From a virus (taxonomy: Duplodnaviria > Heunggongvirae > Uroviricota > Caudoviricetes), in IMG/VR virus record IMGVR_UViG_2609459834_000013, positions 1 to 19,800 of that record: a DNA stretch of 19,800 bases, one strand, 5' to 3'. The position numbers and the translations under genes were made by a program. This document shows positions 1 to 19,186 of the stretch, piece after piece. Every line of letters begins with the position of its first letter. The stretch's first letter is position 1. The notes under the pieces were generated by a model. It searched no databases. It saw only the letters and a program-made list of their open reading frames with translations, and was not told the origin of the DNA.

Positions 1-123
<123 letters not shown>

Positions 124-223
124 AAACCGGAAATAACGCCAGAAATGGTGGAAAAAATAGCCTAAATAGGCTGATTCGATGTGTTTGCGGGAAAAAAATC
201 GGCCCAGATCCGCGAAATTTTAA

Positions 224-946
224 TCAGCGAGTCAACTTGGGAAGAAATGACCTGCTTATTCGCACCTTCCCAAGATACACATGCCGATAAAGCTCGTGAT
301 TAGCCTTCTTCATAATCTCCATATCCCTGCGGAGAGTTTCCGGGAACCATGGATTAGCTGTGTAGTTGATCTGCTTGACGATGCAGTAGCGATTACCGTT
401 TTCGTCATAGTCGGGGTATATGCGATTCGTAACAAAGCGCTGATGTGTATCGCTGAGTCTGTTCTTCGGGTTGTATGCAACCCATATTTCCGACTCAACC
501 ACTCGACCATACTCAGCGCTGTAGAACTCTTTACGTACCGTTGGGATAAGCGTTTCCCATGAGTCCTTTGATACGTTTTCTGCTTCCTCTACAAGGGCGG
601 CATCGAAGTTTGCGTAACCTTTGATATTTTCCACGTTAAGGCGCAGGAAGTCGAAACTGATACGTCCGCCGCTATTGGCAAATATCTCTGTCTTATTGAT
701 AGTCACCAGTGAGTGGAGGTTTCGGCGGTTAATCTCTTCAACAATTTCCGCATAGCATGATTCCTTGATGGACTTCATGTACTCACGAAAACAGATAAGC
801 TTCCATCCGTGATAGATGACGTTATTGAGGAGGATTGTTATGAACGTTCGCGTCTTGGCGGAACCTCGCCCGCCATAAGCTACCTTGAATCTGGCTGGCT
901 GCAGGTATTCCTCAAACGCTTCAGGAATGCTGCATTGCTCTGTCAT
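224..946 (-). pseudogene. phage terminase large subunit, apparently 3'-truncated (ATPase domain only, 240 aa)
   Basis: ORF track 224..946; N-terminal Walker A-like motif GGRGSAKT typical of terminase large subunit ATPases; start overlaps terS stop (ATGA). Stop at 224 and no continuing minus-strand frame; terminase large subunits are normally over 400 aa with a C-terminal nuclease domain. Confidence 0.6.
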
Positions 947-1386
947 TGCGTCTCGCTTTTTACAATGTTATACACTGGAGCTTTTGGAGTCATGGAGCCG
1001 TCATCAGATGTATGGTTGACGTCCTGCTTCTCTCGCCATTTATCTTTCTGTCTGTTCTTGAGCCAGAAGATGGCGGCAGTTGTATCAGGCGGGTAATACT
1101 TCTTAAGCGGAGTTTCGACAATTCTGTTTTCAATAACACGAATATCGATGTCTGGAGCCACGAAGCCCATAGCGCGTTGATAAAGACGATCACTAACTTC
1201 TGCATCAGCGACGGCCTTACCCTTTTTTATGGACTCTAAAAACTCCGGATATTCCAATTTCCAATTGTTGATTGTTGCCTCGCTAACTTCAAAGAAGTCA
1301 GCGAGTTCGGCGTCTGTATAGCCCAGCAAGCACAGTTTGCGTGCCTGTTCGGCATACGCCTCTTGATACTTTGTTGGGCGCGCCAT
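943..1386 (-). CDS. phage terminase small subunit (HTH-type)
   Basis: ORF track 147 aa; N-terminal HTH-like region (…YTDAELADFFEVSEATINNWK…) and position immediately upstream of the large subunit with overlapping stop/start. Confidence 0.7.
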   Translation of the reverse strand: MARPTKYQEAYAEQARKLCLLGYTDAELADFFEVSEATINNWKLEYPEFLESIKKGKAVADAEVSDRLYQRAMGFVAPDIDIRVIENRIVETPLKKYYPPDTTAAIFWLKNRQKDKWREKQDVNHTSDDGSMTPKAPVYNIVKSETQ

Positions 1387-1388
1387 GT

Positions 1389-1631
1389 TTATGCTCCGGT
1401 GGTGAACAGGTCTAACGCTTCCTTCGATTTACGCACCGCTTCGATAGTGCGGGTCGTGATATCCGAATTAGCGCCGCCTGACTGGAAGTGAATTTTGAAT
1501 AGCTCAAGCTTCAGCTCGTCAGTGCCAATGAACTGAAATGCTTCTTCTGCGGCTGCGTTCTGGTTCATGACCAGTTTGTAAATCTCTAACTGGAATTTCT
1601 GTTCTTCAGTCATGGGAATAATCTCTGCCAT
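1389..1631 (-). CDS. hypothetical protein (80 aa)
   Basis: ORF track; ATG start preceded by ACGGAG Shine-Dalgarno; ends 2 bp before terS start. Confidence 0.5.
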   Translation of the reverse strand: MAEIIPMTEEQKFQLEIYKLVMNQNAAAEEAFQFIGTDELKLELFKIHFQSGGANSDITTRTIEAVRKSKEALDLFTTGA

Positions 1632-1927
1632 TGTTGGCTCCGTTTATCCGTTAAAAGGGATATCAGTTAAGTTATCCCGTGTAGGGTATAAGCCATTGTC
1701 GAGACCACTCATTGAATGGTCTCTGCAATAACCGATGTCTTTCCATCAGTCCGCCACCACAAAGAATCTTTTTTTGCCATAAGGCAGGAGGTTCATCTTT
1801 CAGTGGCTGCCAGTGTTATTTCCCCACTTACTGGCTTGGGTTGTTTCGTGGTACTGCCGTTAACTGGTGGCCCAGAATAAATTCCGGTTTCATTATCAAG
1901 CCCACCCGTAAATGGGCTTTGTAATGG

Positions 1928-2185
1928 CTACTTCGCTTTTGCTTCCGCTCGCTTACGCCGGCGCTCTTCTTTCCTCTCGGCTTTTGCCATGTCCATGAAT
2001 GCCTGCATGATCGAGTTCCGCATCATGTAGCTAACAAAGTGATGATTGACACAGCCGTTGAGGCGCAGCTGCTCGCCAAACTCATCCACCGAGGCCAATG
2101 CTTCCATCATGCCATTCTCGCCTTTCATGAACTCTGAGAAGTCACGTCCCGCTCTGGAGGCGCATTCAATGACACGATCACTCAT
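1928..2185 (-). CDS. hypothetical protein (85 aa) with highly basic C-terminal tail (ERKEERRRKRAEAKAK)
   Basis: ORF track; start overlaps stop of the KilA-N gene (ATGA coupling). Confidence 0.5.
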   Translation of the reverse strand: MSDRVIECASRAGRDFSEFMKGENGMMEALASVDEFGEQLRLNGCVNHHFVSYMMRNSIMQAFMDMAKAERKEERRRKRAEAKAK

Positions 2186-2679
2186 CCCGGAAGCCCGGGG
2201 ATCGTAATCTGCAGCTGGTTAGCCAGGGAGTTAATCTCAGCGACCAACACTGGCTTCGTATAGCGCCATGCTGCCAGCCCTTGTCCGCAGAAGCTCGCCA
2301 TGTCTTTCTTCTGGTCAAACTCATGACATTTCATGTTGAGCTGCGCACTTAAGCTGTTGCGATGCTGAAGTTCTCCGGTGAAGTAGTCATCGAGGACTTT
2401 ATAGGCCGCGTACTTGAACCCGGGGTTTAACCAAGCCGCATAATCGTAAGCAACAAACTTCCCGCCATATGTTCCACCGTGTACACCGCGCTCAGTAAAA
2501 ACCACAGATTCGTGGTTTTTCTCCAGCTCGGCTAAGAACTCTTTGGTCTGCTTGTTTCGCAGGTAGTGGTAAGGCGATTCAGATTCACTTTTACCACTGG
2601 CTTTCCACATATCAGTGAGGCAGATCATGCCATCTTCACCGATACGAATTGGTTGATTGAAGAGGGTTAATGATTTCAT
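2182..2679 (-). CDS. KilA-N domain protein (165 aa)
   Basis: ORF track; N-terminal region (…IRIGEDGMICLTDMWKASGK…YLRNKQTKEFL…) matches the KilA-N/APSES-type DNA-binding domain as I recall it from phage Ant/Bro proteins. Confidence 0.6.
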   Translation of the reverse strand: MKSLTLFNQPIRIGEDGMICLTDMWKASGKSESESPYHYLRNKQTKEFLAELEKNHESVVFTERGVHGGTYGGKFVAYDYAAWLNPGFKYAAYKVLDDYFTGELQHRNSLSAQLNMKCHEFDQKKDMASFCGQGLAAWRYTKPVLVAEINSLANQLQITIPGLPG

Positions 2680-2794
2680 AGCGTGTACCTACTCTTTGAA
2701 ATGAACCTTTGCCGCACAGGAAACCAGCCCACCGAGGCTCGCCAGCACTAACTGGTATCCTCAAAGGCCCATTCCAAAGGGGCAGGTTCGGTGT

Positions 2795-2820
2795 AAAAAA
2801 CATGCGTTGCGGTACGCATT
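2795..2820 (-). terminator. intrinsic terminator candidate (second of two after Rz)
   Basis: Minus-strand RNA AUGCGU-ACCGCA-ACGCAU followed by GUUUUUU; 6-bp stem. Coordinates approximate. Confidence 0.45.
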
Positions 2821-2821
2821 T

Positions 2822-2848
2822 ATTGCAAAAAGCCCCGCATCGCGAGGC
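2822..2848 (-). terminator. intrinsic terminator candidate directly downstream of Rz
   Basis: Minus-strand RNA AGCCUCGC-GAU-GCGGGGCU (7-8 bp stem with one G-U pair) followed by UUUUUGCAAU. Coordinates approximate. Confidence 0.5.
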
Positions 2849-2880
2849 TCATTAAATGGACTTTGTGATTTGCAAAAAAA

Positions 2881-3318
2881 TTATTTCAGGCATTGCGTCC
2901 TGATGTACTCCTGCAGGTAGTTAACCTGCGCGGTTATCCTGTCGATTCCACTTCGGAGACGGTAATAATTGAGTTCAGCATCTGCTGTAAGTCTTGGGCT
3001 TTCTCCATCGCCCATGCTGCTGGCTCCGGTCTTTGACTTTGCACAGGAGGCGGCGACTTGCAGCCGCTTACGCCCAGCAGAAACATCATCACGGAGACTT
3101 TCGATAGTCGCGTTAGCATCAGCAAGCTCCTTTGTATATCTGGCATCGAGTTCTGCTACGTCACGTTGACGCTTCTGCATGTCAGCGATGATGGATGTGG
3201 CTTTGTCGCGCTGCTCTTTGTAGGCGATGGCGTTATCACGGTAATGATTAACAGCCCATGACAGGCAGACGATGATGCAGATAACCAGAGCGGAGATAAT
3301 CGCGGTTACTCTGCTCAT
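2881..3318 (-). CDS. Rz: Rz i-spanin (145 aa)
   Basis: ORF track; N-terminal signal-anchor [31 protein letters not shown] matches lambda Rz as I recall it, then diverges; start overlaps R stop. Confidence 0.85.
2934..3119 (-). CDS. Rz1: Rz1 o-spanin lipoprotein embedded in the +1 frame of Rz
   Basis: Track ORF 2934..3146 contains [20 protein letters not shown] with lipobox and a proline-rich mature region ([16 protein letters not shown]). Start chosen at the internal Met (3119); a start at 3089 is also possible. Confidence 0.7.
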
Positions 3319-3791
3319 ACCTCAATATCTCTGACCGTTCCGCCAGCCTCTTTGAATTTTGCAATCAGGTTGTCAGCCTTATGCTCGAACTGGCCATAGC
3401 CAGCGCCCGGCAGTGAAGCCCAGATATTGCTGCAACGGTCGATTGCCTGACGAATATCACCGCGGTCAATCATCGGTAAAGCGCCACGCTCTTTAATCTG
3501 TTGCAATGCCACAGCGTCCTGGCTTTTCGGAGAGAAGTCTTTCAGGCCAAGCTGCTTACGATAGGCATCCCACCAACGGGAAAGAAGCTGATAGCGCCCG
3601 GCGGCTGTTGATTTGAGTTTGGGGTTTAGCGTGACAAGTTTGCGAGGGTGATCGGAGTAATCAGTGAATAGCTCTCCACCTACAATGACGTCATAACCAT
3701 GATTTCTGGTTTTCTGCCGTCCGTTATCAGTTCCCTCTGACCACGCCAGCATATCGAGGAACGCCTTACGTTGATTATTGATTTCCACCAT
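3315..3791 (-). CDS. R: endolysin R (lytic transglycosylase), 158 aa
   Basis: ORF track; sequence [39 protein letters not shown]… recognised as near-identical to lambda R. Confidence 0.95.
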
Positions 3792-4098
3792 CTTCTACTC
3801 CGGCTTTTTTAGCAGCGAAGCGTTTGATAAGCGAACCAATCGAGTCAGTACCGATGTAGCCGATGAACACGCTCGTTATATAAGCGAGATTGCTACTTAG
3901 TCCGGCGAAGTCGAGAAGGTCACGAATGAACCAGGCGATAATGGCGCACATCGTTGCGTCGATTACTGTTTTTGTAAACGCACCGCCATTATATCTGCCG
4001 CGAAGGTACGCCATTGCAAACGCAAGGATTGCCCCGATGCCTTGTTCCTTTGCCGCGAGAATGGCGGCTAACAGGTCATGTTTTTCTGGCATCTTCAT
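3775..4098 (-). CDS. S: holin S (S107/S105 dual-start), 107 aa
   Basis: ORF track; [43 protein letters not shown]… recognised as lambda S including the MKM dual-start motif. Confidence 0.95.
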
Positions 4099-4218
4099 GT
4101 CTTACCCCCAATAAGGGGATTTGCTCTATTTAATTAGGAATAAGGTCGATTACTGATAGAACAAATCCAGGCTACTGTGTTTAGTAATCAGATTTGTTCG
4201 TGACCGATATGCACGGGC

Positions 4219-4253
4219 AAAACGGCAGGAGGTTGTTAGCGCAACCTCTTGCC
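4219..4253 (-). terminator. strong hairpin / possible terminator between tR' and S
   Basis: 12-bp inverted repeat GGCAGGAGGTTG / CAACCTCTTGCC (one mismatch) with 6-nt loop; minus-strand RNA followed by GUUUUG. Coordinates approximate. Confidence 0.35.
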
Positions 4254-4390
4254 ACCCGCTTTCACGAAGCCAGCCATTGCGCTGGTTTTCTTTTATGCAA
4301 AGCACACCGCACCGTAGCCACAGCGGATAAGGTGATTATTTTTGTCTGTCTGGTATTTGGTTTGATGTGCTTTCAGAAAGGTCGTGATTA

Positions 4391-4424
4391 AAACGCAAAA
4401 AGCCCCGAGCTATTAACTCAGGGC
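4391..4424 (-). terminator. tR' intrinsic terminator of the short pR' leader transcript
   Basis: Minus-strand RNA GCCCUGAG-UUAAUAG-CUCGGGGC followed by UUUUUGCGUUUU, about 40-60 nt downstream of the pR' candidate. Confidence 0.7.
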
Positions 4425-4460
4425 TTTATTTAACGAGTGCATTTATCCATCGTTGAGTCA

Positions 4461-4489
4461 AATTTACCCAATCTTATTCAAAAAGTCAA
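4461..4489 (-). promoter_or_regulatory. late promoter pR' candidate (-35 TTGACT, 17-bp spacer, -10 TAAATT) with overlapping Q-utilisation region
   Basis: Hexamers read on the minus strand immediately downstream of Q stop; arrangement matches the lambda pR' location. Confidence 0.6.
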
Positions 4490-4531
4490 TATCATGCCGT
4501 TAATATGTTGCCATCCGTGGCAATCATGCTG

Positions 4532-5155
4532 CTAACGTGTGACCGCATTCAAAATGTTGTCTGCGATTGACTCTTCTTTGTGGCATTGCACCACCAGAGC
4601 GTCATACAGCGGCTTAACGGTGCGTGACCAGGTGGGTTGGGTAAGGTTTGGGATTAGCATCGTCACAGCGCGATATGCGGCGCTTGCTGGCATCCTTGAA
4701 TAGCCGACGCCTTTGCATCTTCCGCACTCTTTCTCGACAACTCTCCCCCACTGCTCTGTTTTTGCTATATCAACCGCACGGCCTGTACCGTGGCAATCTC
4801 TGCATCTTGCGCCCGGCGTCGCGGCACTACGGCAATAATCCGCATAAGCGAATGTTGCGAGCACTTGCAGTACCTTTGCCTTAGTATTTCCTTCGAGCTT
4901 TGCCACACCACGGTATTTCCCCGATACCTTGTGTGCAAATTGCATCAGATAGTTGATAGCCTTTTGTTTGTCGTTCTGGCTGAGTTCGTGCTTACCACAG
5001 AATGCAGCCATTCCGAATCCGGCTTGTGATTGCGCCATCCCCATAGCAGCCATCACATCAGTACCGGAAAGAGAGTCAGAAGCCGTAGCCCGTGGTGAGT
5101 CGCTCATCATCGGGCTTTTTGGCGAATGAAATTTAGCTACGCTTTCGAGTCTCAT
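4532..5155 (-). CDS. Q: late antiterminator Q (207 aa)
   Basis: ORF track; [34 protein letters not shown]… and the Cys-rich zinc-binding region recognised as lambda Q; start overlaps ninI stop. Confidence 0.95.
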
Positions 5156-5817
5156 GCGCCTTCTCCCTGTACCTGAATCAATGTGAGGTTTCCGCAGAAC
5201 ACTGCGCCGGTATCGATATACATCTGGTTGGCAAACTTGAGTGGTTTCACTGCTGGCGTATGACCAAAGATGAACGTGTCCGCACCTTTGATTTCTTTCA
5301 CGATCCCGTCTTGTGAGTTGCTGATTCGTTCGCGGTTCCAGATTACCTGCTGATGATCAACTGGTTTTCCAAACTCGTATTCGTCACAAGGATAATCGGC
5401 GTGGCAGATGACATATTTTTTATCTTTGCTCACCAGTTCGATGATTAACGGAAGTTCATCTGCTTTATGGGCAAGAGCTTTAGCCAGAATTTCTTTGTCG
5501 TAATCGAGATTAAAGAACCATCCACCGCCATTAAGCAGCCAGTGATTAACGTTTCCACGCTCTGATAAGCCATCAATCATCATTTGCTCATGGTTTCCAC
5601 GTACAGCTCTGAACCAGGGGAATGTGATTAATTCCAGGCATTCGACGTTCTCTGCACCACGATCAACCAAATCGCCCACCGAGATAAGCAGGTCTTTTTT
5701 GTTGTCGAATCCAATCGTATCCAGTTTGTTCATCAGGTTCGTGTAGCATCCGTGCAGATCGCCAACTACCCAAATATTTCGGTATTTGCTGCCATCAATT
5801 TTTTCGTAATAGCGCAT
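5152..5817 (-). CDS. ninI: Ser/Thr protein phosphatase (lambda ORF221 / NinI type), 221 aa
   Basis: Track ORF 5152..5892; metallophosphatase motifs GDLHGC, GDLVDRG, GNHE; start placed at internal Met [13 protein letters not shown] (5817), as in lambda. Confidence 0.85.
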
Positions 5818-6001
5818 CTCTTTCACTCCATCCGCGATGAACCATGAGAACGTCGTTGACGATGGCGTGCATTTTCCCGTCTTTATCATCAACGTATTTT
5901 CTGACCGTACCGCGACTACATTTCAGTCTGCGTGCTACTTCTGTCTGGTTTCCGTATGCTTCAACGAGCATGTCTGGAATGGTTTTTACTGAGAACGTCA
6001 T
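5795..6001 (-). CDS. ninH: NinH (68 aa)
   Basis: ORF track; size, sequence and position match lambda NinH as I recall it. Confidence 0.85.
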
Positions 6002-6609
6002 GCGGCCTCACTTCTGCTATTTCGCAGGTCTTTGAGTTTCTGTTGGTACTCTGCCTTGATCGCCTTGCACTCTTCGATAGTCCAGCGATGGCGGTTATGG
6101 TTTGATTCGATTTCGTCTACTGCTTCCTGCCCGATGCGGCTAATCAGTTCGACGCGATACGGAACGAGATTTCCGCTTTTGTGCTGGTTGCACACCACGC
6201 ATTGCTTGTGAATATTGCGTTCATCAAATCGGAGTTGAGGTGCCGCAGCAGTTGTCCGGTAATGTCCGGCATCCCACTGAGCAGACGTGAGCGTTCCGCA
6301 CGAGATACATGGTAAGTCGCGGTCTCTTTCTCTGATGAAGGCGTTTACGGCTTGTTGGGCTTGTTTAATCCAGTAACTGCGGGGCTTTAAGGCGAGTTTT
6401 CGAATCTTAAGTTTATCTTTCTGTTTCTGCTCCTCTCGTCGTCGTTTCTTCTCTGCTGCTTTTTCCGCTTTTTCGCGTTCTTTGCTTCGTCGTTCGAGTG
6501 CTATCTTGGTTCCACGCTCTGGAGAGCACCACCACTGATTAGCGAATGCAGGGTGAAACCATTCCCGGCATTCATCGTTTTTACATCGTCTTCGCGCTGG
6601 TTTAGCCAT
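5998..6609 (-). CDS. ninG: NinG (Rap) recombination protein, 203 aa
   Basis: ORF track; Cys-rich N-terminus and lysine-rich linker recognised as lambda NinG. Confidence 0.9.
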
Positions 6610-6878
6610 TATGGTTCACTCCAGTAATTCTCAATTGCAGCAGCCATTCTCTGCATCCACTCAGCCAGCTTTAACGCGGCTTCTCTTTCAGAACCACATT
6701 TAGGGAAATCCTTCATTTCCATGCTGGCCTTATATGTTCTGAATGCCAGGTCTCCGGTAATAACCAACTCCTGATCAAGCACCGAGCGTTTATTCCGGTG
6801 TTGAACGTAATAGACAAATTCAGTCCGCATTTCTTCTCTGTCTTTTTTGAAGGAAATAAGCTCAGAGAAATCACTCAT
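6609..6878 (-). CDS. hypothetical nin-region protein (89 aa)
   Basis: ORF track; ATG start overlapping ninF stop; no family recognised. Confidence 0.5.
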
Positions 6879-7047
6879 CGTCTTCTTCCTCGTACATTGA
6901 GCTATTCGGATCGCTCATCAGTTCTGCGCAGCAGTGCTCACACATGTGAACTTCCAGCACATGCAGCTTCTGACCGCAGTTAGCGCACGTTAAAGCCCGC
7001 TCGACGCTTTCTTTCTGGTATTGAATGGATTGGGATGGGCTAAGCAT
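6871..7047 (-). CDS. ninF: NinF (58 aa; below the ORF-track size cutoff)
   Basis: Hand translation of the minus strand gives [58 protein letters not shown], matching lambda NinF in its Cys motif and acidic tail. Confidence 0.7.
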   Translation of the reverse strand: MLSPSQSIQYQKESVERALTCANCGQKLHVLEVHMCEHCCAELMSDPNSSMYEEEDDE

Positions 7048-7408
7048 TATTGGCGTCCTGCATCATGAGAAAGACAATCATGGCGGCGCGGAGAACATTT
7101 TCATGCTCATGCTCCCAAATAGGGTTGGCAGAAGCACCGTGCAAACCGCTTTCGTTCCAGTCCCAGAGAATGTTAACTCCGTTATCAGCAATAATCGGCC
7201 ATGCGTCTGCTGGGTTTGCGCATGGGTTAAAGGATCCGCGCTCAACTTCTACTTCAACTGCGTCTCCGTTTACAATGTCTCCCTCAAATGAGATAAACAC
7301 CATCGCGCCATTCTCACCTTCTTTGTAATCCGGTGATCCGTTATGAATGGCTTCGAATACCGCCACGTTAATTTCAAAATCACTTAACTGTGAATAATCC
7401 ATTGTCAT
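7040..7408 (-). CDS. hypothetical nin-region protein (122 aa), possibly NinX-like
   Basis: ORF track; sits between ninE and ninF, where P22-type phages carry ninX; start overlaps ninE stop. Family assignment is from memory and weak. Confidence 0.5.
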
Positions 7409-7581
7409 TTCCTCGCACGTTCTCTAAGCCACCGGATATCCCACAGGTGAGCCGTGTAGTTGAAGGTTTTTACGTCAGATTCTTTTGGGATTGGCTTGCG
7501 TTTATTTCTGGAGCGTTTCGTTGGAAGGTATTTGCAGTTTTCGCAGATGATGTCGGTGAAACTTCGTCGCTGTCGCCTCAT
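7405..7581 (-). CDS. ninE: NinE (58 aa)
   Basis: Track ORF 7405..7671; internal Met [58 protein letters not shown] matches lambda NinE. Confidence 0.85.
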
Positions 7582-8105
7582 GCCGCCCTCCTGACGCCCT
7601 GCCCGATCGCCATCAATGCCGCTTTGGATACGGTAGTAAACATCCGTCGAGGACTGATGAACGGTCGCCAAATCAGCAGCATGGAGCCTTTGCTGTTTCC
7701 CTTCTTCTCCAGCCCTGTCGATGGTTCGATAAAATTAATCCGTCCATCAGTGATAATGCGAACTTCGTCGACACTCTCCAGAGCCTTGCTGAACCATCCG
7801 ACTGACATATCCTCTGGCACAAGCATAACTACCGTCTGTCGCTGTTGTATGCACTGCTCAGCGGCTTTTTCCACCCACGGCCTGATATTGCTGTACGGTG
7901 GGTTATTCCAGATTGCACCGTGGCTTATCCACTCAGAATTTAGCGCGTCGTCGACCTCAGTTAACCAGTGAGCGCACAGAGCATTTTTGTCGCTCGCTGC
8001 CGAATCCAGCCAGAATCCAAACTCAATATCCAGTGCATCAAAAAGCCAAAGCGGCGTTTGCCAGCAGTCCTTGTCGTGTGCTGGCGTATTTGATTTGATA
8101 GTCAT
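7578..8105 (-). CDS. phage DNA N6-adenine methyltransferase (orphan Dam type), about 175 aa
   Basis: Track ORF 7578..8165; NPPY catalytic motif (…[13 protein letters not shown]…); start placed at the Met overlapping ninB stop (ATGA). No adjacent restriction endonuclease. Confidence 0.7.
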
Positions 8106-8542
8106 GCAGCCCGATCTCCCCATCGCGCTTTCCATTCGAGAGCCAGTCGCGCTTCGTCTGACCACTTAACGCCACGCTCTGTACCGAATGCCTGTATAAG
8201 CTCTAATAGCTCCGCAAATTCGTTTACACGCATCCTGCTGGTTGACTGGCCTATTACCACAAAGCCATTCCCGGCAAGGTTAGGAACAACATCCTGCTGC
8301 TTTAATGCTGCGGTAAACACACACTTCCAGCTTTCTGCATCCAGCCAGCGACCATGCCATTCAACCTGACGAGAGACGTCACCAAGGCAAGCCCAAAGCT
8401 TTCGATTCTGGTCTAAGCTGCGGTTGCGTTCCTGAATGGTTACTACGATTGGTTTGGTTGGGTCTGGAAGGATTTGCTGGATAGCTTGAATGGCGTTCTG
8501 CTGATGGATGGGGCTTCTTAGTTCAAACGTTAGTTTCCTCAT
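8102..8542 (-). CDS. ninB: NinB (Orf) recombination mediator, 146 aa
   Basis: ORF track; near-identical to lambda NinB as I recall it (…PIVVTIQERNRSLDQNRKLWACLGDVSRQVEWHGRWLD…). Confidence 0.9.
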   Translation of the reverse strand: MRKLTFELRSPIHQQNAIQAIQQILPDPTKPIVVTIQERNRSLDQNRKLWACLGDVSRQVEWHGRWLDAESWKCVFTAALKQQDVVPNLAGNGFVVIGQSTSRMRVNEFAELLELIQAFGTERGVKWSDEARLALEWKARWGDRAA

Positions 8543-8759
8543 GGGATGAACTCCAGTTTGTGATGTTAAATTCCCATTTAATTACCTTTGCATACCCAAT
8601 TTTGAACCCATCAATACCTATCCACCGCTTGCCACTCCAATAAGCTGTGCCACTTTGCTTGAAATGATGTGGATGCCTAGATTGAGTGGTCACAGTTACA
8701 GGTAAATATGGCTTCGGGTATTCCCCATTCCCTGGATAACCAGATTTAATTTTGCTCAT
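8523..8759 (-). CDS. hypothetical protein (78 aa), AT-rich gene
   Basis: ORF track; ATG with purine-rich Shine-Dalgarno (GAGAGAGG); overlaps upstream gene stop and ninB start; visibly AT-rich compared with neighbours. Confidence 0.5.
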   Translation of the reverse strand: MSKIKSGYPGNGEYPKPYLPVTVTTQSRHPHHFKQSGTAYWSGKRWIGIDGFKIGYAKVIKWEFNITNWSSSHEETNV

Positions 8760-9094
8760 TGATACCCTCTCTCACTTAATCGCCTCCACGCTTCGTTAAA
8801 CTCTTCTCGAGTTGCGCCGGATTTTCTTTCTTCAAACATCATGCATTCGCTGATGTCTCCCCATGACTTTGGTCGCTTTTCAGCGAACAGATCATCCCAT
8901 TCGAATACCCAGCGGCCTGATTTTCGGCAGTGGTAAATGGTCAGCCATGTTGTGCTGTTCGCTGGATACCCATAGAGAACTTCGACTTTTTGATCACGGT
9001 CTTTATGCTTTTTCAGCAGGATAAAGCCAGCAACCAGCGAAGCTCCGGCAAGAATGATGATTGGAATTTGCCAGTCAGCCACACTCCCCCCCAA
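8756..9094 (-). CDS. hypothetical small membrane protein (about 108-112 aa; non-ATG start)
   Basis: ORF track; N-terminal hydrophobic helix IPIIILAGASLVAGFILL followed by KKHKDRDQ; start codon is TTG (9094) or GTG (9082) and neither has a convincing Shine-Dalgarno. Confidence 0.35.
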   Translation of the reverse strand: MGGSVADWQIPIIILAGASLVAGFILLKKHKDRDQKVEVLYGYPANSTTWLTIYHCRKSGRWVFEWDDLFAEKRPKSWGDISECMMFEERKSGATREEFNEAWRRLSERGYQ

Positions 9095-9123
9095 ATAAAA
9101 AGGCCTGCGATTACCAGCAGGCC
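9093..9123 (-). terminator. intrinsic terminator candidate downstream of the helicase gene
   Basis: Minus-strand RNA GGCCUGC-UGGUAAUC-GCAGGCC followed by UUUUUAUUU, 27 bp after the helicase stop. Confidence 0.5.
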
Positions 9124-9149
9124 TGTTATTAGCTCAGTGATGTAGATGG

Positions 9150-10526
9150 TCATACGTCAGCCCCTTGTGCATATCTTCTGCCACGCGCAGCAGGTGCATT
9201 TGATGTTGTGCAAATCTGTCTGGCTTCATCCTGGTCACATGCCACAAAGTGTCCGTTGCAGAATCGCTGGTAAACCGTACCAAGTGAGCCAAAACGGTTT
9301 TTCGTCACGATGATTTCAGCAAATGGCGCGGCGCTACTGTTCTCGTCATATACCGCTTCCCGATAGAGCATGATGATTGAGTCTGCGTCCTGCTCAATGC
9401 TTCCTGAATCACGCAAATCTGCGTTTGTCGGGCGTTTGTTTGGTCGCTTCTCAACATCGCGCGAAAGCTGACTCAGGGAGATAACTGGCGTTTTCAGGTC
9501 TTTCGCCATCGCCTTCAGGCTTCCGGAGATGTGAGCAATTGCGAGGTCGTTGCGATCTGCTTTCGGCTTCTCAATCAGGCCAAGATAATCCGCCATGATG
9601 AGTGACAGGTTTGGATTTTCCTGTTTGTGCCGTTCTGCGATTGAGCGAATTTCTTCGACAGATAACCGCGAGGCATCGACTACCCATACATCCAAATCTG
9701 CAAGCTGACTCATGCCGTTAGCAACGCGCGCCCAGCCTTCGTCATCCATCGATGCAGGATTTCGCAGCACGCTAACCGACATCCTCCCGGCGTTGGCAAT
9801 GCTTCGCTCTGCAATCTGCAATGCGCTCATTTCCATCGAGAAAATCAATACTCCGCGCCGGACGTCAGAACCAGGAATAACGCGACTTGCAACGCCTTCG
9901 GCAATCTTCAGCGCCAGTTCGGTTTTCCCCATACCAGGACGAGCGGCGATTATCACCAGGTCTTCCGCGTTCATCCCTCCGGTGATAGCGTCAAGTTCTT
10001 CGATTCCGGTCTTCAGGGTATCGGACTCTTCTCCGTTCCTCAGACGCCTGTCAAGCGTGTCAGTGTAGTCGGTGATGATTTCCCCTAACCGTACAGGTTT
10101 AACCTCGTCACGGGGCTTTCTGATGGCTGAAAGACGCTTTACAAGCTCATCCATCGCCTGACTCGATGTATCGATAGTTCCGTTCTGAATTGGTTCGCGC
10201 ATTTCATCCATGATTTCCAGCACCAGACGGCGGTGATAGTTATCCGCGACCATTCCGGCATATCCCTTCAGGTTTGCGGCACTCGGGCAGTTCTTACTGG
10301 TCATCAGGATTGACGTGAAATGCTCCTCTCCGCACGCCTCGGCAACCATCAGCGCGTCGATTAGGTTTCTGTTTCTCGCCTGCTTGCGGATAACCTCGAA
10401 GGCTTTCCGGTAGAGCGGAATTGAAAACGCTTCCGGCTCAAGCGTTGCCAGAACGTCACTGGCGGTTGGAGTTAATCCACCAATCAGCAGGCCACCGATA
10501 ACGCTCGCTTCGATATCCTGTCTCAT
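9150..10526 (-). CDS. replicative DNA helicase, DnaB family (P22 gene 12 type), 458 aa
   Basis: ORF track; Walker [14 protein letters not shown], Walker B-like LIMADYLGL and other DnaB-type motifs; overlaps the initiator gene stop. Confidence 0.85.
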
Positions 10527-11353
10527 GCAATCCCCCTGTCTGCAAACTTCCCTTCCCGAACTCCCGTTAACGAGTCTTCTCTCAGCAGGTAATCAAAATC
10601 AGCCGTCCAGCCCGTGTCGTTGTCTCCGAAGTAAAACGGCTTGGCCTGATGCACAAACGCCCTGACATACGCTCTGAAACCGTCCACGTTTGGCGTTTTC
10701 AGTTGCGGAATGATTTTCTTCAGGCGACGTTTGCGTTTCTCGTTGACCGCAACAGCGTGTGGCAGTCTGTCACCGACTTCGGTGTTGTAGGCGTTCAGGA
10801 AGGATTCATAGTCGATTCGTTCTGCCTTGCGACGTTCAGGTTTAACCTGCCCATCGCCGCCCCCGTTAGGGGGTAAGGGGGTATTTGTATTTATTGTCTT
10901 TTGTATATTGTCTTTTGTGTTTGACTGATTCGGTAAATTGCTTTTTACCGATTTGGTGAAGGTTTGTTTTACCGAATTGGTAAATGTTTTACCGAATCCG
11001 TTAACTTTCGTTTTCCACTCGGAAATGTTTGTATTCATACCAACTTGACGCCCCACCTGAATGAGAACTCCCATTCTGATAAGCTCGTTTTTGGCGGTAG
11101 AGCATTTGGTTGGTGCCATGCCAGTGAGTTCAGCGAACTGTTCGTTTCCGATCCAATCTATTTTTTTGTTGTAACCGTATGTCTTGCGCCACACAGCCAT
11201 AACAATCAGTAACTGATGTAGAGTAAGTCCAGAAAGCATGGCGGCTTCTAACAGTGTGTTTGCAGTCCGAGTGTAGCCATCTTCGAGTTCTGCCACGCGA
11301 TGCTCCACGACCTCCAGTTGAGGCCTGTAATCAGCTAACTTAACGACGCCCAT
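10523..11353 (-). CDS. replication initiator with lambda O-type N-terminal DNA-binding domain (276 aa)
   Basis: ORF track; N-terminal region resembles the O-protein N-terminal domain; the low-complexity middle ([30 protein letters not shown]…) is encoded by the iteron/AT-rich DNA, as in lambda ori. Confidence 0.8.
10925..11005. repeat. origin of replication iterons (about four copies of TTTTACCGAAT-n-GGTAAA-like 18-20 bp repeats) with adjacent AT-rich tract (about 10875-10920)
   Basis: Repeats read directly in the sequence, spaced about 22 bp apart inside the initiator gene, followed in the gene's direction by an AT-rich stretch. Coordinates approximate. Confidence 0.65.
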
Positions 11354-11501
11354 GTTTCACTCCTGCTTTGGCTAGTCTGTAAACACCAACAAGGCGCTCT
11401 GCGAACGCCCTGTTATTTGCTGCGGCTACCACTAATCCCTCAGGTGAATCAGGGTGTCGAATCTCTTCTTTTTCCTGGTATTTCTTACGACGTTTTGTCA
11501 T
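11340..11501 (-). CDS. small hypothetical ORF (53 aa; below the ORF-track cutoff) between cII and the initiator gene
   Basis: Hand translation [53 protein letters not shown]; ATG preceded by AGGAGT Shine-Dalgarno; 3' end overlaps the initiator start. Confidence 0.35.
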   Translation of the reverse strand: MTKRRKKYQEKEEIRHPDSPEGLVVAAANNRAFAERLVGVYRLAKAGVKHGRR

Positions 11502-11535
11502 AATGACTCCTGTGGATTGATCCAGTCTTTCTACA

Positions 11536-11817
11536 TCAGGCCTCGAAGAATTCGCCGTTCTTCGGGGCTTTTTCTTTTGTCAGGTAATTGGCAAGCCGCT
11601 TAGTCAGCTCAGCCATTTCATCGTCTTCGATTCCGTATTCCAGAACAGCCAGCATCATGCTTACCTGCGAGAAGAAACCATTCTTCCATCGGCTTACCTG
11701 ATATTCAGGAACCCCCATCGCTCGAGCGAATGTCTTCTGCCCCATCAGTGCCAGTTTGTTCAGCAAGGCTGACTCGATGCGAGCCGCTTTCTTGCTTTTA
11801 GTTGCAATAGTACCCAT
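11536..11817 (-). CDS. cII: CII transcriptional activator homolog (93 aa)
   Basis: ORF track; …RIESALLNKLALMGQKTFARAMGV…QVSRWK…MLAVLEYGIEDDEMAEL… aligns with lambda CII as I recall it; AAGGA Shine-Dalgarno upstream. Confidence 0.8.
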   Translation of the reverse strand: MGTIATKSKKAARIESALLNKLALMGQKTFARAMGVPEYQVSRWKNGFFSQVSMMLAVLEYGIEDDEMAELTKRLANYLTKEKAPKNGEFFEA

Positions 11818-11893
11818 AGATAATTTCCTTAATGATTAGATAGAGTTGGCTTCGCAAAGAAACGCAAAACCATAGAGATTTGTTTCTGGTAAT

Positions 11894-11925
11894 GCCCTTT
11901 TTCAGGGCGGTGATGTGTAAGAGCG
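11894..11925 (-). promoter_or_regulatory. nutR (boxA CGCTCTTACACA, boxB GCCCTGAAAAAGGGC)
   Basis: Read on the minus strand directly after the cro stop; matches the lambda nutR boxA/boxB sequences from memory. Confidence 0.75.
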
Positions 11926-11933
11926 GGAATGTC

Positions 11934-13286
<1,353 letters not shown>

Positions 13287-13336
13287 TCCTCACCTCAATT
13301 TCGACAACCAAAAAACAAACTATTTTCCGTTTAAAA

Positions 13337-13409
13337 ACAATGGAGTTTGTTTTTCACGCCCATTTTTACAATATTTCTTGTTTACAACATACAATCTTTC
13401 TTGTAATTT
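13337..13409 (+). promoter_or_regulatory. OL operator region (three ACAA-n6-TTGT sites) overlapping pL candidate (-35 TTTACA, 17 bp, -10 TAATTT)
   Basis: Sites ACAATGGAGTTTGT, ACAATATTTCTTGT and ACAATCTTTCTTGT at about 13337-13350, 13368-13381 and 13391-13404; promoter hexamers at about 13381-13386 and 13404-13409 face N. Confidence 0.7.
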
Positions 13410-13449
13410 TAAGCCATCAGCAGGACGCACTAACCACCATTGAAGGTGA

Positions 13450-13480
13450 GGCTCTTAAAAATTTAGCCCTGAAGAAGGGC
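13450..13480 (+). promoter_or_regulatory. nutL (boxA-like GCTCTTAAAAA, boxB GCCCTGAAGAAGGGC)
   Basis: Read directly upstream of N; matches lambda nutL boxB from memory. Confidence 0.75.
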
Positions 13481-13590
13481 AGCATTCAAAGCAGAAAGCT
13501 TTGAGTAGCGCGAAATGCAGCTGCAAGACAGCAACCGTGGAGATAAGCATCACGGCGCGTTACTCAAAGCTAACTGACAGGAGAATCCAG

Positions 13591-14488
<898 letters not shown>

Positions 14489-14611
14489 TTAAAAGACAGG
14501 CATACTAATAAACACTGCACTGTGTATTCATTCCAACGAGTGAATACACGGAGCAATGTCGCTCGTAACTAAACAGGAGCCGACTTGTTCTGATTATTGG
14601 AAATCTTCTTT

Positions 14612-14639
14612 GCCCTCCAATGTGAGGGCAGTTTTTTTT
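14612..14639 (+). terminator. intrinsic terminator (tL1-like) on the pL strand
   Basis: GCCCTC-CAATGT-GAGGGC hairpin followed by AG and a run of eight T, 13 bp before the next start codon. Confidence 0.7.
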
Positions 14640-14652
14640 GACGGAGTAAACG

Positions 14653-14901
14653 ATGATAAAAACTGATTACCCTGCAGATCTTAAACAAAAAGTAATAACA
14701 GCAATTAAATGCTCTTTTATCTCATGTCGTACAGATGAAGAACGATATGTCGTTGAGTGTGCAATTGTCGAGTTTCTCACAGCGATGGAGTTTACCGCTG
14801 CAGAATCAATAGATGTATTAAAGCAATCAGACGGAAATGATATTGAAACGGATGATGTTATTGACCGACTAATAAAATCATTCGAAGAAGAAATAGAGTA
14901 G
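14653..14901 (+). CDS. hypothetical small acidic protein (82 aa; about 20 Asp/Glu versus 9 Lys/Arg)
   Basis: ORF track; GGAG Shine-Dalgarno 8 nt upstream; AT-rich; sits where lambda carries ral. Confidence 0.55.
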   Translation: MIKTDYPADLKQKVITAIKCSFISCRTDEERYVVECAIVEFLTAMEFTAAESIDVLKQSDGNDIETDDVIDRLIKSFEEEIE

Positions 14902-14984
14902 CCGCCTGAGCGCGGCTTTACCGCATACCAATAATGCTTCACGAGAGGCATTTTCGTTATGCAATCAAATATAAGGAGTTACCC

Positions 14985-15119
14985 ATGATGCACTTTCAGC
15001 TCGCGGGTAGCGGCGTCATGTCCGCTTTCTACCCGCACGAATCAGAATTATCACGCCGAGTTAAACAATTAATCAGAGCAGCAAAGAAACAACTGGAGGC
15101 GTTATGCGCAATGAAATAG
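14985..15119 (+). CDS. cIII: CIII-like protein (FtsH inhibitor family), 44 aa
   Basis: Track ORF 14934..15119; start placed at the ATG after an AAGGAG Shine-Dalgarno; core …PHESELSRRVKQLIRAAKKQLEAL resembles lambda CIII core …PSESLLERITRKLRDGWKRLIDIL. Confidence 0.55.
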   Translation: MMHFQLAGSGVMSAFYPHESELSRRVKQLIRAAKKQLEALCAMK

Positions 15120-15256
15120 CCATTAATCACCAGATGCTTCGTGCTGCACAGAACAAAGCAGTAATAGCCCGATTTATTGGTGATTCAAAAATGTGGCTTG
15201 AAGCAAATAAAGCGATGAAATCAGCTATCAATCTTCCGTGGTATCGCAGGAAATGA
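15104..15256 (+). CDS. kil: Kil-like small protein (50 aa; below the ORF-track cutoff)
   Basis: Hand translation MRNEIAINHQMLRAAQNKAVIARFIGDSKMWLEANKAMKSAINLPWYRRK*; GGAGG upstream; the FIGD-containing segment resembles lambda Kil as I recall it. Confidence 0.45.
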   Translation: MRNEIAINHQMLRAAQNKAVIARFIGDSKMWLEANKAMKSAINLPWYRRK

Positions 15257-15411
15257 GTTTTACAGATAACTGGTCAGACGAAGAATTCATTCGTCAGATG
15301 AAAGAATTAATCGATAACGAAGGAGATATTCATGTCACTTGCAACCACAGTGAAGGAGAGCAAGTTACAGAGACGCATGTACACGCAGAAAGCTCTCTGG
15401 TATCGCCATAA
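15253..15411 (+). CDS. small hypothetical ORF (52 aa)
   Basis: Hand translation MSFTDNWSDEEFIRQMKELIDNEGDIHVTCNHSEGEQVTETHVHAESSLVSP*; start overlaps the kil-like stop (ATGA). Confidence 0.3.
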   Translation: MSFTDNWSDEEFIRQMKELIDNEGDIHVTCNHSEGEQVTETHVHAESSLVSP

Positions 15412-15512
15412 TGGCGACCGCGAAGGAATGCGGGTATGCCTTAATTTGTCCCGAGTAGAAGTATTAAATCAGCGTTATTTCCTTGGGCCATGTCCATTCT
15501 GAGAACAATCAT

Positions 15513-16118
15513 ATGAGCAAAGAATTTTACGCAAGGCTGGCAGCTATTCAGGAGAATCTGAACGCGCCAAAGAATCAATACAACTCATTCGGCAAATATA
15601 AATACAGAAGCTGCGAAGACATTCTTGAGGGTGTTAAGCCGTTACTGAATGGCCTGTTTTTATCAATCAGCGATGAAGTTGTGTTGATTGGTGATCGGTA
15701 TTACGTGAAAGCCACGGCAACTATTACTGATGGCGAAAACAGTCATACAGCAACCGCTCTTGCACGAGAGGAAGAAAGCAAGAAAGGAATGGATTCTGCA
15801 CAAGTTACGGGAGCTACAAGCTCTTATGCACGCAAGTATTGCCTCAATGGTTTGTTCGGCATTGATGATGCGAAAGATGCAGATACAGACGAGCATAAAC
15901 ATCAGCAGAACGCAGCAGCAAAGCAATCAAAACCATCACCTACACCTGAACAGGTTCTAAAAGCATTCACTGACGCAGCATTGCAGAAAAACACCGTGGA
16001 AGAGCTTAAACAGGCGTTCGCCAAAGCGTGGAAGATGCTCGAAGGCACACCGGAGCAGCAAAAAGCGCAGGACGTTTACAACATCAGACGAGACGAATTA
16101 GAAGGGGCGGCTGCTTAA
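15513..16118 (+). CDS. erf: Erf-family single-strand annealing protein (about 201 aa)
   Basis: Track ORF 15483..16118 (TTG-extended); from Met MSKEFYARLAAIQENLNAPKNQYNSFGKYKYRSCEDILEGVKPLL… resembles P22 Erf. Confidence 0.8.
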   Translation: MSKEFYARLAAIQENLNAPKNQYNSFGKYKYRSCEDILEGVKPLLNGLFLSISDEVVLIGDRYYVKATATITDGENSHTATALAREEESKKGMDSAQVTGATSSYARKYCLNGLFGIDDAKDADTDEHKHQQNAAAKQSKPSPTPEQVLKAFTDAALQKNTVEELKQAFAKAWKMLEGTPEQQKAQDVYNIRRDELEGAAA

Positions 16119-16501
16119 TGGCACATTCGATTACTGTAAGACTAAACAAGCCCGCAAGAGAGTTTCAGGCCGGGGAAAATATCGGATTCAACATCCGTGC
16201 TGGAGTTCAGTATTACGATCGCCAGACAAAAAAGAAAGAATGGACAAACTACAGCGCCGTTGTATTTGCCAAGCCGGGAGCGCAAGCGGATTACTACCGT
16301 AGTGTTCTTGTTGAAGGTGGCATTGTTGAAATTACCGGAGAAAACATCAGGGTTGATATTTATCAGGGGCAAAATGGTCAATCAATCACTCTTGAATTAC
16401 TGAATGCAAAGATTGGATTTGCAGCTTCAGGAAATGGCCCGCAGCAGCAAAGTAGTAACCAGCAGAACACTCCTGTATACGACGATTCCATCCCATTCTG
16501 A
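16118..16501 (+). CDS. ssb: single-stranded DNA-binding protein (short phage SSB with acidic DDSIPF tail), 127 aa
   Basis: Track ORF 16028..16501; start at the Met overlapping the erf stop (TAATG); C-terminal …PVYDDSIPF resembles the SSB protein-interaction tip. Confidence 0.7.
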   Translation: MAHSITVRLNKPAREFQAGENIGFNIRAGVQYYDRQTKKKEWTNYSAVVFAKPGAQADYYRSVLVEGGIVEITGENIRVDIYQGQNGQSITLELLNAKIGFAASGNGPQQQSSNQQNTPVYDDSIPF

Positions 16502-16524
16502 TTTAGAAAAATAAGGATTTAATT

Positions 16525-16821
16525 ATGCCAGCGCCTTTGTATGGCGCGGATGACCCGCGCCGCTGTTCCGGCAATTCCGTATCGGAGGTGCTGGATAAAT
16601 TCAGAAAAAACTACGATCGAATAATGTCTCTACCGCAGGAAACGAAAGAGGAAAAGGAATTTCGCCACTGTATATGGCTTGCAGAGAAAGAAGAACGCGA
16701 GCGAATTTACCAGACATCAATCCGACCATTCCGCAAAGCCACTTATACCCACTTCCCTGAATATATCGACCCGCGCCTGCGTAATTACCGCTCACGCTAT
16801 GGCGCTATCAGTAATGACTGA
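16525..16821 (+). CDS. hypothetical protein (98 aa)
   Basis: ORF track; AAGGA Shine-Dalgarno upstream. Confidence 0.5.
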
Positions 16822-16831
16822 GGAATTTACC

Positions 16832-16996
16832 ATGAGAGGACTTGCATACAATCCCGGCATTCTTCCGGCAGAAATGATTATTCGCCAACGCGTAAAGCCA
16901 ATGCCATCGAGAGAGGAATTACTTAAGAGAAATTCTTTTCCATCAGTGAATCAAAACAAATATCTGAATGCGATGTTGCGGAGTGGGAAGAAATGA
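16832..16996 (+). CDS. small hypothetical protein (54 aa)
   Basis: Internal Met of track ORF 16679..16996 preceded by TGAGGAA Shine-Dalgarno; stop overlaps the next gene start. Confidence 0.35.
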
Positions 16997-17517
16997 AACA
17001 AATGTCACTAATTGAGATGGATGGTTTTCTGAAAGGTAAATGCATCCCACGAGATTTAAAGGTTAACGAAACAAACGCTGAATATCTGGTGCGCAAGTTC
17101 GGTGAGCTTGAATCAAAACTGGAAACGGCGTTGCGGGAGTGTCGTTCTGCTGGAATCACGATTGATAACCTTGAGGCTAAATGCGCGAAGATGGCTGCTG
17201 AAAATACCTCGCTTAAGCAATCTGAGAAGGAATTTAATGACTTTTGTCGTGAGGAGTTTAGCGAATGGGAAGATGATGTTACTGAAACCCCGACCACCGA
17301 CGCCTTCCTGGCTGAAGTGCGGGCCAGCGCGGTAGAAGAGGCTTGCCTGAAAATTAGCAACGCCATCGTTAATTGCTATCAGGACGAACAAATCGGTCTT
17401 GATGCGGCAGCAACTATCTGCGGGGACTTCGCCGCCCAACTTCGCCAGGATGCCAACACCGCAGAACTGGTAGCCGCTGGAATCATCACTAAGGTGGGGG
17501 GGGTAGGGTATGGCTGA
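16993..17517 (+). CDS. hypothetical protein with predicted coiled-coil region (174 aa), ea-region type
   Basis: ORF track; translationally coupled to both neighbours. Confidence 0.5.
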
Positions 17518-17782
17518 GTTTACGAAAGAGCAGTTGATTGAGAAGCTTGAGCGCCGTCTTGCGGTAACAACCCATTACCCTGATGTTGAAGAAGCGCAAC
17601 TCGATGCGCAAATCTTCAAAATCGCACTGGCAGTGCTGACGGCTGATGCATCCATGTACGCCAGTGAAGAGACGTTAATCTGTGCGGAACAAGGTGAGTT
17701 TCTCTTGCGCACCCTAAACAGACCAGCTGGTGACGCCACTATCCCACTCTACCGCCTACCACTGCTGGAGGGATTGAAATGA
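17510..17782 (+). CDS. hypothetical acidic protein (90 aa)
   Basis: ORF track; overlaps both neighbours. Confidence 0.5.
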   Translation: MAEFTKEQLIEKLERRLAVTTHYPDVEEAQLDAQIFKIALAVLTADASMYASEETLICAEQGEFLLRTLNRPAGDATIPLYRLPLLEGLK

Positions 17783-18750: not shown

Positions 18751-19028
18751 TGGACTCCTTCGCGAAATATACGATTATTGACTGGATTGCCTTCCTTCAG
18801 GTTTTGCTCATCTGGTTTTATATGGCTTACAGGAGTGGACAGTGGATTGTCAGTGTAGCCTGTAGCAAGGGATGGCGTTGGTGGAACCGAAAGAATAAAA
18901 AAGCGCTGGCCTTGGATTCGTTTTACGAAGCATTCAATCTTAACAGTCTTCAGCCTGGTTCTGTCATTGTAGTCACCACTCAAAGCGGCATGACCATTCA
19001 GATTCATAAACCAAAAGAGGAAAAATGA
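18750..19028 (+). CDS. hypothetical small membrane protein (92 aa)
   Basis: ORF track; hydrophobic N-terminal segment IIDWIAFLQVLLIWFYMAY; coupled to the upstream gene. Confidence 0.45.
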   Translation: MDSFAKYTIIDWIAFLQVLLIWFYMAYRSGQWIVSVACSKGWRWWNRKNKKALALDSFYEAFNLNSLQPGSVIVVTTQSGMTIQIHKPKEEK

Positions 19029-19114
19029 TGTGGCCTATATGTGTTAATTGCGGACGGATGTGCCTATCTGGATGGTGCAGAAAGTGCGACAAATGCACGA
19101 AGAAAAGACAATAA
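19025..19114 (+). CDS. small Cys-rich peptide (29 aa; possible zinc ribbon)
   Basis: Hand translation MMWPICVNCGRMCLSGWCRKCDKCTKKRQ*; start overlaps the upstream stop (ATGA). Confidence 0.3.
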   Translation: MMWPICVNCGRMCLSGWCRKCDKCTKKRQ

Positions 19115-19148
19115 CAATCCTCGAACTCGCGGGGATTTCTTTTATCTG

Positions 19149-19173: not shown

Positions 19174-19186
19174 ATGGAGACAAGAA

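Follow-up and report, generated by a model that had tools for sequence, protein, structure and literature searches.

In lambdoid phages, the nin region of the early-right operon consists of closely packed genes that are typically joined by ATGA overlaps (PMC8022706). In lambda, the nin genes belong to the delayed-early class; their expression requires N antitermination, and plaques form without them (PMC10695390). Mosaic exchange occurs at the conserved tR2/ninA element of lambdoid phages (PMC8022706, PMC10695390), and boundary sequences of this kind include bsq6 in Sf6 and the ninA sequences of P22 and phage 21. Here we report on two small genes, called gene 1 (open reading frame 1, ORF1) and gene 2 (ORF2, the gene for a protein of 78 amino acids, aa), that lie between such an element and ninB in positions 1 to 19,800 of the IMG/VR record IMGVR_UViG_2609459834_000013 (Caudoviricetes). 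This 19.8-kb stretch is referred to below as the window, and coordinates follow its numbering unless another sequence is named. Read 5′ to 3′ on the minus strand, which encodes all genes of interest, the order is a DnaB-type helicase gene, a NinA-like ORF with an internal terminator, a G-rich spacer, gene 1 (8756..9082), gene 2 (8523..8759), and ninB. The locus has in common with the lambdoid nin region its packed genes, its ATGA overlap, and its place in the antiterminated early-right operon; it differs in that gene 1 and gene 2 belong to no named Nin family in Pfam.

The closest described counterpart of gene 1 is Sf6 gene 46 (AAQ12235), which likewise encodes a protein of 108 aa, uses a GTG start, and follows directly after the ninA/tR2 boundary sequence. 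The gene 1 product has 97% amino-acid identity to the Sf6 protein and to a protein of Salmonella phage Oslo (tblastn). The difference lies downstream, as Sf6 gene 46 is followed by genes 47–49 and not by the 78-aa gene. Gene 2 shares a family motif with phrog_29435 and with unannotated ORFs of Enterobacter and Klebsiella phages (e.g., VLCpiS13c gp65), but most of these relatives are 60–72 aa long, lack the 14-residue tail that overlaps ninB, and occur in other neighborhoods. Both proteins are already catalogued as families of unknown function (Sf6 gene 46/phrog_5903 and phrog_29435), and the slot they occupy has long been described in lambdoid phages. A literature search found no functional study of Sf6 gp46 or of the tR2-ninB slot.

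Our preferred interpretation, to which we assign a probability of roughly 0.6, is that gene 1 and gene 2 are independent, dispensable accessory genes of the lytic phase, carried as mosaic cargo at the tR2/ninB boundary of a lambda/P22-type prophage. The anatomy of the locus was largely as the initial annotation had described it, with a pair of genes directly after the helicase terminator: a tR2-type intrinsic terminator (9093..9124, minus strand) is followed by two ORFs that overlap by ATGA. The terminator was identified by a terminator scan, by its fold, by its identity to lambda, and by the annotation of the Sf6 and P22 records. In the scan, a hairpin at 9124..9101 with an 8-bp stem that includes 6 G-C pairs is followed by TTTTATTT. 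It corresponds to lambda tR2 and to the P22 “L2” element, with 97% identity to lambda across 70 nucleotides (nt); the Sf6 record annotates it as tR2-like, within “boundary sequence bsq6,” and the P22 record as “L2; similar to phage lambda.”

Comparison with P22 and lambda by blastn defines the limits of the insertion. P22 homology covers the end of the helicase gene and the tR2 element, and lambda homology covers the tR2 element; homology to these phages ends at position 9084 and restarts at 8543, the base before the ninB ATG. The insertion between these breakpoints (8544..9083, minus strand; 540 nt) contains exactly gene 1 and gene 2, and in P22 and lambda ninB begins 15–16 nt past the terminator T-tract. 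Other phages carry alternative cargo at the same place, namely genes 46–49 in Sf6 and some Escherichia coli prophages, four other ORFs (~855 bp) in Shiga toxin (Stx) phages, and none in P22 and lambda. The tR2-ninB interval is a recombination-prone cargo slot, filled by mosaic exchange.

Traces of this exchange are visible at the downstream edge of the slot, where gene 2 and ninB overlap by 20 nt. The C-terminal end of gene 2 (..HEETNV) is also that of Sf6 gene 49, which is unrelated to gene 2 and carries the annotation “FlbD family,” so that the two products share the ending (H/N)EETNV. They do so only because both cargo genes run 20 nt into the same ninB allele (8523-8542 in the window; L001 3657-3676; L035 3015-3034), which places the mosaic boundary upstream of the ninB start. 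For the same reason, the family core of gene 2 (residues 4–64) stops at residue 64, as the tail (residues 65–78) is set by the overlap with ninB. In the prophage of enteropathogenic E. coli (EPEC) E2348/69 (L034 2812-2835) and in 12 of 76 viral contigs, a seven-codon stub of gene 2, MSRIKSR followed by a stop codon, adjoins another ninB allele (MKQIYML...) and marks a recombination joint 17 nt into gene 2.

Gene 1 and gene 2 need not occur together and are inherited independently. Among 76 relatives of the locus, gene 1 is followed by the full gene 2 in 28, by an unrelated Sf6-type gene 47 in 36, and by the gene 2 stub in 12. Gene 1 is accordingly found without a full gene 2 in 48 of the 76, as well as in Sf6 and EPEC E2348/69. 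The reverse case is seen in a prophage of Enterobacter ludwigii, where gene 2 lies directly before ninB with the same 20-nt overlap, and a gene of the phiTE_015 family replaces gene 1.

Both ORFs are genuine genes. For gene 1, two start codons are available, a GTG at 9082 (108 aa) and a TTG at 9094 (8756-9094, 112 aa); the GTG is the likely start, since it is the one used in Sf6 and by the Prokaryotic Genome Annotation Pipeline (PGAP), and since the match to the PHROG profile begins only at residue 5 when the 112-aa TTG form is used. With either codon the start is non-ATG, as initially annotated. The protein matches phrog_5903 over profile positions 1-108 of 108 (E=1.1e-74), and each of the 76 close copies of gene 1 encodes the full 108 aa. 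Its reading frame is also conserved among 58 relatives with identity down to ~35%, in all of which Y37, G38, Y39, P40, W46, L47, T48, Y50, F60, E61, D63, L65, and F66 are invariant (motifs YGYP, WLT.Y, and FE.D.LF). Gene 1 was found in 108 of 5426 complete E. coli genomes.

Gene 2 is rarer, occurring in 25 of the same 5426 genomes without any indel. A well-placed Shine-Dalgarno sequence (GAGAGAGGG, 5 nt ahead of the ATG) had been noted from the start and is indeed present. The protein matches phrog_29435 over the full profile (positions 1-78 of 78, E=7.2e-57), and its relatives, mostly of 60–72 aa, retain the motif GYPGNGEYP..Y..V.V...G.AYWSG.RW...F.IGY.KVIKW at identities down to 39%. Compared with the Enterobacter copy (78% nucleotide identity), the ratio of nonsynonymous to synonymous substitution rates (dN/dS) has a value of 0.15 in the coding frame; the other two frames give 1.19 and 1.61. 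None of the 11 copies examined has a disrupted frame, and the variable sites number 14, 12, and 32 at codon positions 1, 2, and 3, respectively.

That one or both ORFs are chance, non-coding reading frames in a spacer was considered because neither matches Pfam and because gene 2 goes without a PGAP annotation in each of the 25 E. coli genomes with this gene (RefSeq annotation 0/25; e.g., L002, L003, and L009-L014; window 8543-8755). The in-frame constraint on gene 2, the enrichment of its variation at third positions, the retention of its invariant motif in distant relatives, the intact gene 1 in every close copy and its 58 relatives, and confident structural models for both products leave this explanation a negligible probability, and it is effectively excluded.

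The gene 1 protein begins with a hydrophobic helix, QIPIIILAGASLVAGFILL, with a Kyte-Doolittle mean of 2.28 over 19 residues, in agreement with the N-terminal membrane helix proposed initially. An AlphaFold2 (AF2) model with a predicted local distance difference test score (pLDDT) of 87 has a helix at residues 5–27, four strands, and a C-terminal helix, the conserved alpha/beta domain amounting to ~75 aa. The basic cytoplasmic domain of the initial annotation needs to be qualified: the membrane-adjacent segment KKHKDRDQK is basic, but the conserved domain has an isoelectric point (pI) of 5.8, and the entire soluble part one of 8.6. In most gene 1 relatives the flank after the helix is net-positive, and ~6 of 32 have neither a membrane helix nor a signal peptide, two features that argue for a cytoplasmic location of the domain. 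The gene 1 product would thus cross the inner membrane once, leaving only a very short N-terminus on the outside, and its conserved globular domain, built of four strands and one helix, probably faces the cytoplasm.

The gene 2 protein is basic (pI 9.65), lacks cysteine, and has invariant aromatic residues. Its AF2 model (pLDDT 84) has five strands and a short helix, which suggests a small basic, aromatic-rich beta protein. A profile search for fusions of the gene 2 domain to other domains gave none, as all 33 matches were single-domain proteins of 43–78 aa. A separate match, the 428-aa protein P0069 with about seven tandem repeats, aligns with gene 2 residues 20–53 at E=1e-8; it resembles a translated tandem DNA repeat and is probably spurious.

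The insert had been described as AT-rich, and its composition had been taken as a sign of horizontal acquisition. In a GC profile, gene 2 is modestly low at 40.9%, compared with a mean of 47.3% for the window (8th percentile of 237-nt windows), whereas gene 1, at 47.4%, is not. Low GC content is a trait of the gene 2 family, because its relatives are also poorer in GC than their surroundings, by 2–9 points, in all 8 other loci checked. Acquisition by mosaic exchange is well supported by the P22 and lambda breakpoints; the argument from composition is weak.

A different function for the pair, suggested by analogy with the lambda ren interval, is that of a small membrane-associated superinfection-exclusion or toxin-type module. 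There is a similarity to lambda ren, which is likewise small, non-essential, and situated between the replication genes and ninB. The ren gene, however, lies between P and tR2, upstream of the terminator, and the insert described here lies downstream. The two positions are occupied at the same time in the EPEC E2348/69 prophage, in which the order is P, ren, tR2, gene 1, ninB, and the analogy with ren drawn in the initial annotation is not supported. Pairwise blastp of Ren against gene 1 and gene 2 gave best matches of only 19–25 residues with E 0.05–0.08, which are not significant.

Some properties of the genes do fit an exclusion or toxin module. Gene 1 encodes a small single-pass membrane protein, every one of the 25 E. 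coli copies of gene 2 follows a gene 1, and the slot is hypervariable, as hotspots for defense and counter-defense genes often are. The separation of the genes in Sf6, E2348/69, Enterobacter, and 48 of the 76 relatives nevertheless speaks against a two-gene unit, as do gene 1 relatives without a membrane helix and others in virulent phages. A search of PADLOC (defense, abortive infection, and toxin-antitoxin families) returned no family at E≤0.1 for either gene, and Pfam and NCBIfam gave no match. The expected expression also points the other way, in that no promoter was detected by the consensus scan and the genes lie downstream of tR2 in an antiterminated operon. The two sequence findings named in the initial annotation as counter-evidence were not observed, as the frame of gene 1 is conserved among its relatives and gene 2 matches no known Nin family. 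On balance we regard such a module as improbable, and the proposal made in the initial annotation is not supported.

With respect to expression, a consensus scan for sigma-70-like promoters found none on either strand at 7900-9700 (1.8 expected by chance). This result and the location of the genes downstream of tR2 in the early-right operon lead us to expect expression in the lytic phase only: gene 1 and gene 2 would be made only in lytic growth, by antiterminator read-through of tR2. The ATGA overlap probably couples translation of gene 2 to that of gene 1.

Searches for known families gave little indication of function for either protein. Pfam (E≤0.1) contains no family that matches gene 1 or gene 2, including the named Nin families (NinB, D, E, F, G, H, X, Y, and Z), while the same search recovered NinB, NinX, and Dam for neighboring genes. 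The initial statement that neither protein is recognized therefore holds for Pfam, NCBIfam, and PADLOC, but not for PHROG, where both have a family, nor for gene 1 as the equivalent of Sf6 gene 46. Sequence-profile searches of PDB with both proteins were empty. In fold searches with both models, no DNA-binding fold was detected and no match was judged meaningful, and a search of BFVD with the gene 1 model returned only its own family (phages Goslar and IME207). Neither protein matches a solved structure, and the gene 1 domain matches no Pfam family, solved fold, or named viral structure.

Three candidate identities for gene 2 were rejected. A fold match to CHAP peptidases was ruled out because the protein has no cysteine. 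A suspected resemblance to DUF551 (PF04448) was not borne out, as none of 15 family members match the Pfam hidden Markov model at E≤10. The third candidate was P22 Arf, a known cofactor of Erf, which was compared because one gene 2 relative lies just upstream of erf. Arf has 47 aa and is acidic, and bears no evident resemblance to gene 2 in a comparison made by eye, with no alignment run.

Genomic position offers another approach to function. Relatives of gene 1 sit directly after replication genes of several kinds, encoding a DnaB helicase (in the window and Sf6), a toprim primase, a lambda-P-like protein, or a family-A DNA polymerase (PolA), and also directly after ren. Virulent phages also carry the gene 1 domain, among them KookSpook (T5-like) and Goslar (a jumbo phage). 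Relatives of gene 2 are located in early DNA-metabolism regions. One group lies between genes for a DUF3799 exonuclease and an ERF-SSB protein, with a 4-nt overlap on either side; others are near genes for helicases, NinX, methyltransferases, or uncharacterized proteins, and there is no constant neighbor.

Phage phi29 offers a possible model for such an arrangement. Its p16.7 protein organizes phage DNA replication at the membrane; it is small, is made early, and joins an N-terminal membrane helix to a cytoplasmic domain, and its gene lies beside replication genes. Gene 1 appears similar to it in architecture and in proximity to replication genes. The p16.7 domain is all-helical, whereas that of gene 1 is modeled as four strands and one helix.

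By this comparison, gene 1 could tether phage replication or recombination to the membrane, with gene 2 as an accessory factor for NinB- or Erf-type recombination. The proposal derives from position: gene 1 relatives come directly after the replication genes in at least four types of replication module, and gene 2 relatives can be found directly upstream of ninB or between the exonuclease and ERF-SSB genes. The basic charge and invariant aromatic residues of gene 2 would also suit such a role. We nonetheless consider it rather doubtful, as the post-replication position may merely mirror a conserved operon order and the tR2 boundary, and the variety of unrelated replication proteins that accompany gene 1 speaks against a specific partner. 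Moreover, the fold searches detected no DNA-binding fold, most gene 2 relatives have other neighbors, and Arf, compared by eye, has no evident likeness to gene 2.

In our preferred interpretation, as independent accessory genes, each gene may act alone in early infection. We tentatively suggest that the gene 1 product, tethered to the membrane, binds a host or phage target in the cytoplasm, that the gene 2 product is a small helper in DNA metabolism that binds nucleic acid or protein, and that the two do not constitute an exclusion or toxin pair expressed in the lysogen. A more far-reaching version seems rather unlikely. In that version, the gene 1 domain (YGYP...TWLTIYH.R...W.FEWDDLF..GRPKSWG) would define a widespread and previously undescribed family of early phage effectors that work on the cytoplasmic side of the membrane, in tasks such as counter-defense or host takeover; gene 2 would encode a recombination cofactor of a new type, a small basic beta-barrel placed beside NinB/Orf or Erf.

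Between the helicase and gene 1, a NinA-like small ORF spans the terminator (9013..9153, minus strand; 46 aa) and matches phrog_5907 over residues 1–23 (E=4.6e-15). It begins MTIYITEL and crosses tR2, as is characteristic of NinA ORFs (~26–27 aa); neither gene 1 nor gene 2 has these features. Its counterparts are Sf6 gene 45, annotated as “similar to phage 21 NinA,” and P22 ninA. In most relatives the NinA-frame ORF has 27 aa.

The greater length in the window is due to the spacer that carries the ribosome-binding region. The usual spacer is the 15-nt sequence GGGGGAGAGGGAAGT, found in 46 of 76 junctions examined and identical to the lambda spacer ahead of ninB. In the window it is replaced by the 10-nt variant GGGGGGGAGT (9083..9092, minus strand), which is unique among the 76; as a consequence, the canonical GAGG ribosome-binding site is lost and the NinA-frame ORF is extended from 27 to 46 aa. 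The variant could be a true 5-nt deletion or a homopolymer sequencing error.

In some other genomes, the gain or loss of one nucleotide in the G-rich spacer (±1 indels) brings NinA and gene 1 into a single reading frame (L002 5998-6399; proteins P0005-P0015). In E. coli, E. fergusonii, and Salmonella the products, of 133–137 aa and with two hydrophobic helices each, are annotated as “hypothetical proteins.” The fused forms are heterogeneous, occur at 2 of 76 junctions, and are probably incidental.

A further possibility considered was that NinA and gene 1 are joined in a protein with two membrane helices by programmed -1 frameshifting, or by phase variation, at the G-run that follows the terminator. 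The NinA frame of the window does read G_GGG_GGA there, a -1 slip would enter the gene 1 frame, and databases hold the fused proteins of 133–137 aa. Conservation decides the matter: the G7 spacer with this heptamer is confined to the window (1 of 76 junctions), the prevalent GGGGGAGAGGGAAGT has no slippery heptamer and gives a 27-aa NinA, and the two fused forms arose from differing ±1 indels. A functional fusion by frameshifting or phase variation is very improbable, and on conservation across the 76 junctions it is effectively excluded.

Several points weigh against the interpretation of gene 1 and gene 2 as independent lytic-phase accessory genes, or against particular parts of it. The neighbors of gene 2 vary, which weakens its link to recombination, and the 142–146-aa genes downstream of two gene 2 relatives (L019 and L021), considered as possible ninB genes, have no NinB similarity, so that there is no conserved gene 2-ninB pair. 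A simple sigma-70 consensus scan may miss promoters that are weak, activator-dependent, or atypical. Translation of gene 1 in the window could be altered by the atypical ribosome-binding spacer. Finally, expression timing, topology, and biochemical roles are matters that we infer, and these parts of the interpretation are less secure than the anatomy of the locus, the reality of the genes, the mosaic insertion, and the independent inheritance, which are shown.

As ordinary mosaic cargo, the two genes are of small importance beyond annotation. There is nevertheless an annotation gap, as the 78-aa gene is under purifying selection, yet RefSeq omits all 25 E. coli copies, and neither family has a Pfam model. 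The tR2-ninB junction also provides a defined cargo slot that lends itself to the cataloguing and testing of accessory genes. Should either protein prove to be a counter-defense protein or a recombination cofactor, a small new family would be gained.

Upstream and outside the insert, the DnaB-type replicative helicase (9150..10526, minus strand) matches Pfam DnaB_C (E=9e-78) and DnaB (E=4.5e-13). Downstream, ninB (8102..8542, minus strand), which encodes the Orf recombination mediator, matches Pfam NinB (E=2.5e-54) and has 92.6% nucleotide identity to lambda ninB. An ORF for a Dam-type methyltransferase follows at 7578-8165; as listed from its first GTG, it overlaps ninB by 64 nt. Its start probably lies further downstream, with a 4-nt overlap with the ninB stop as in the relatives L002 and L003.

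No Rfam family was found at gathering score anywhere in the 19.8-kb window. GC content dips to 38–41%, with strong AT skew, at 10800-11100, inside the gene for an O-like replication initiator (10523-11353). In lambdoid phages, the origin of replication is located inside the O-type initiator gene.

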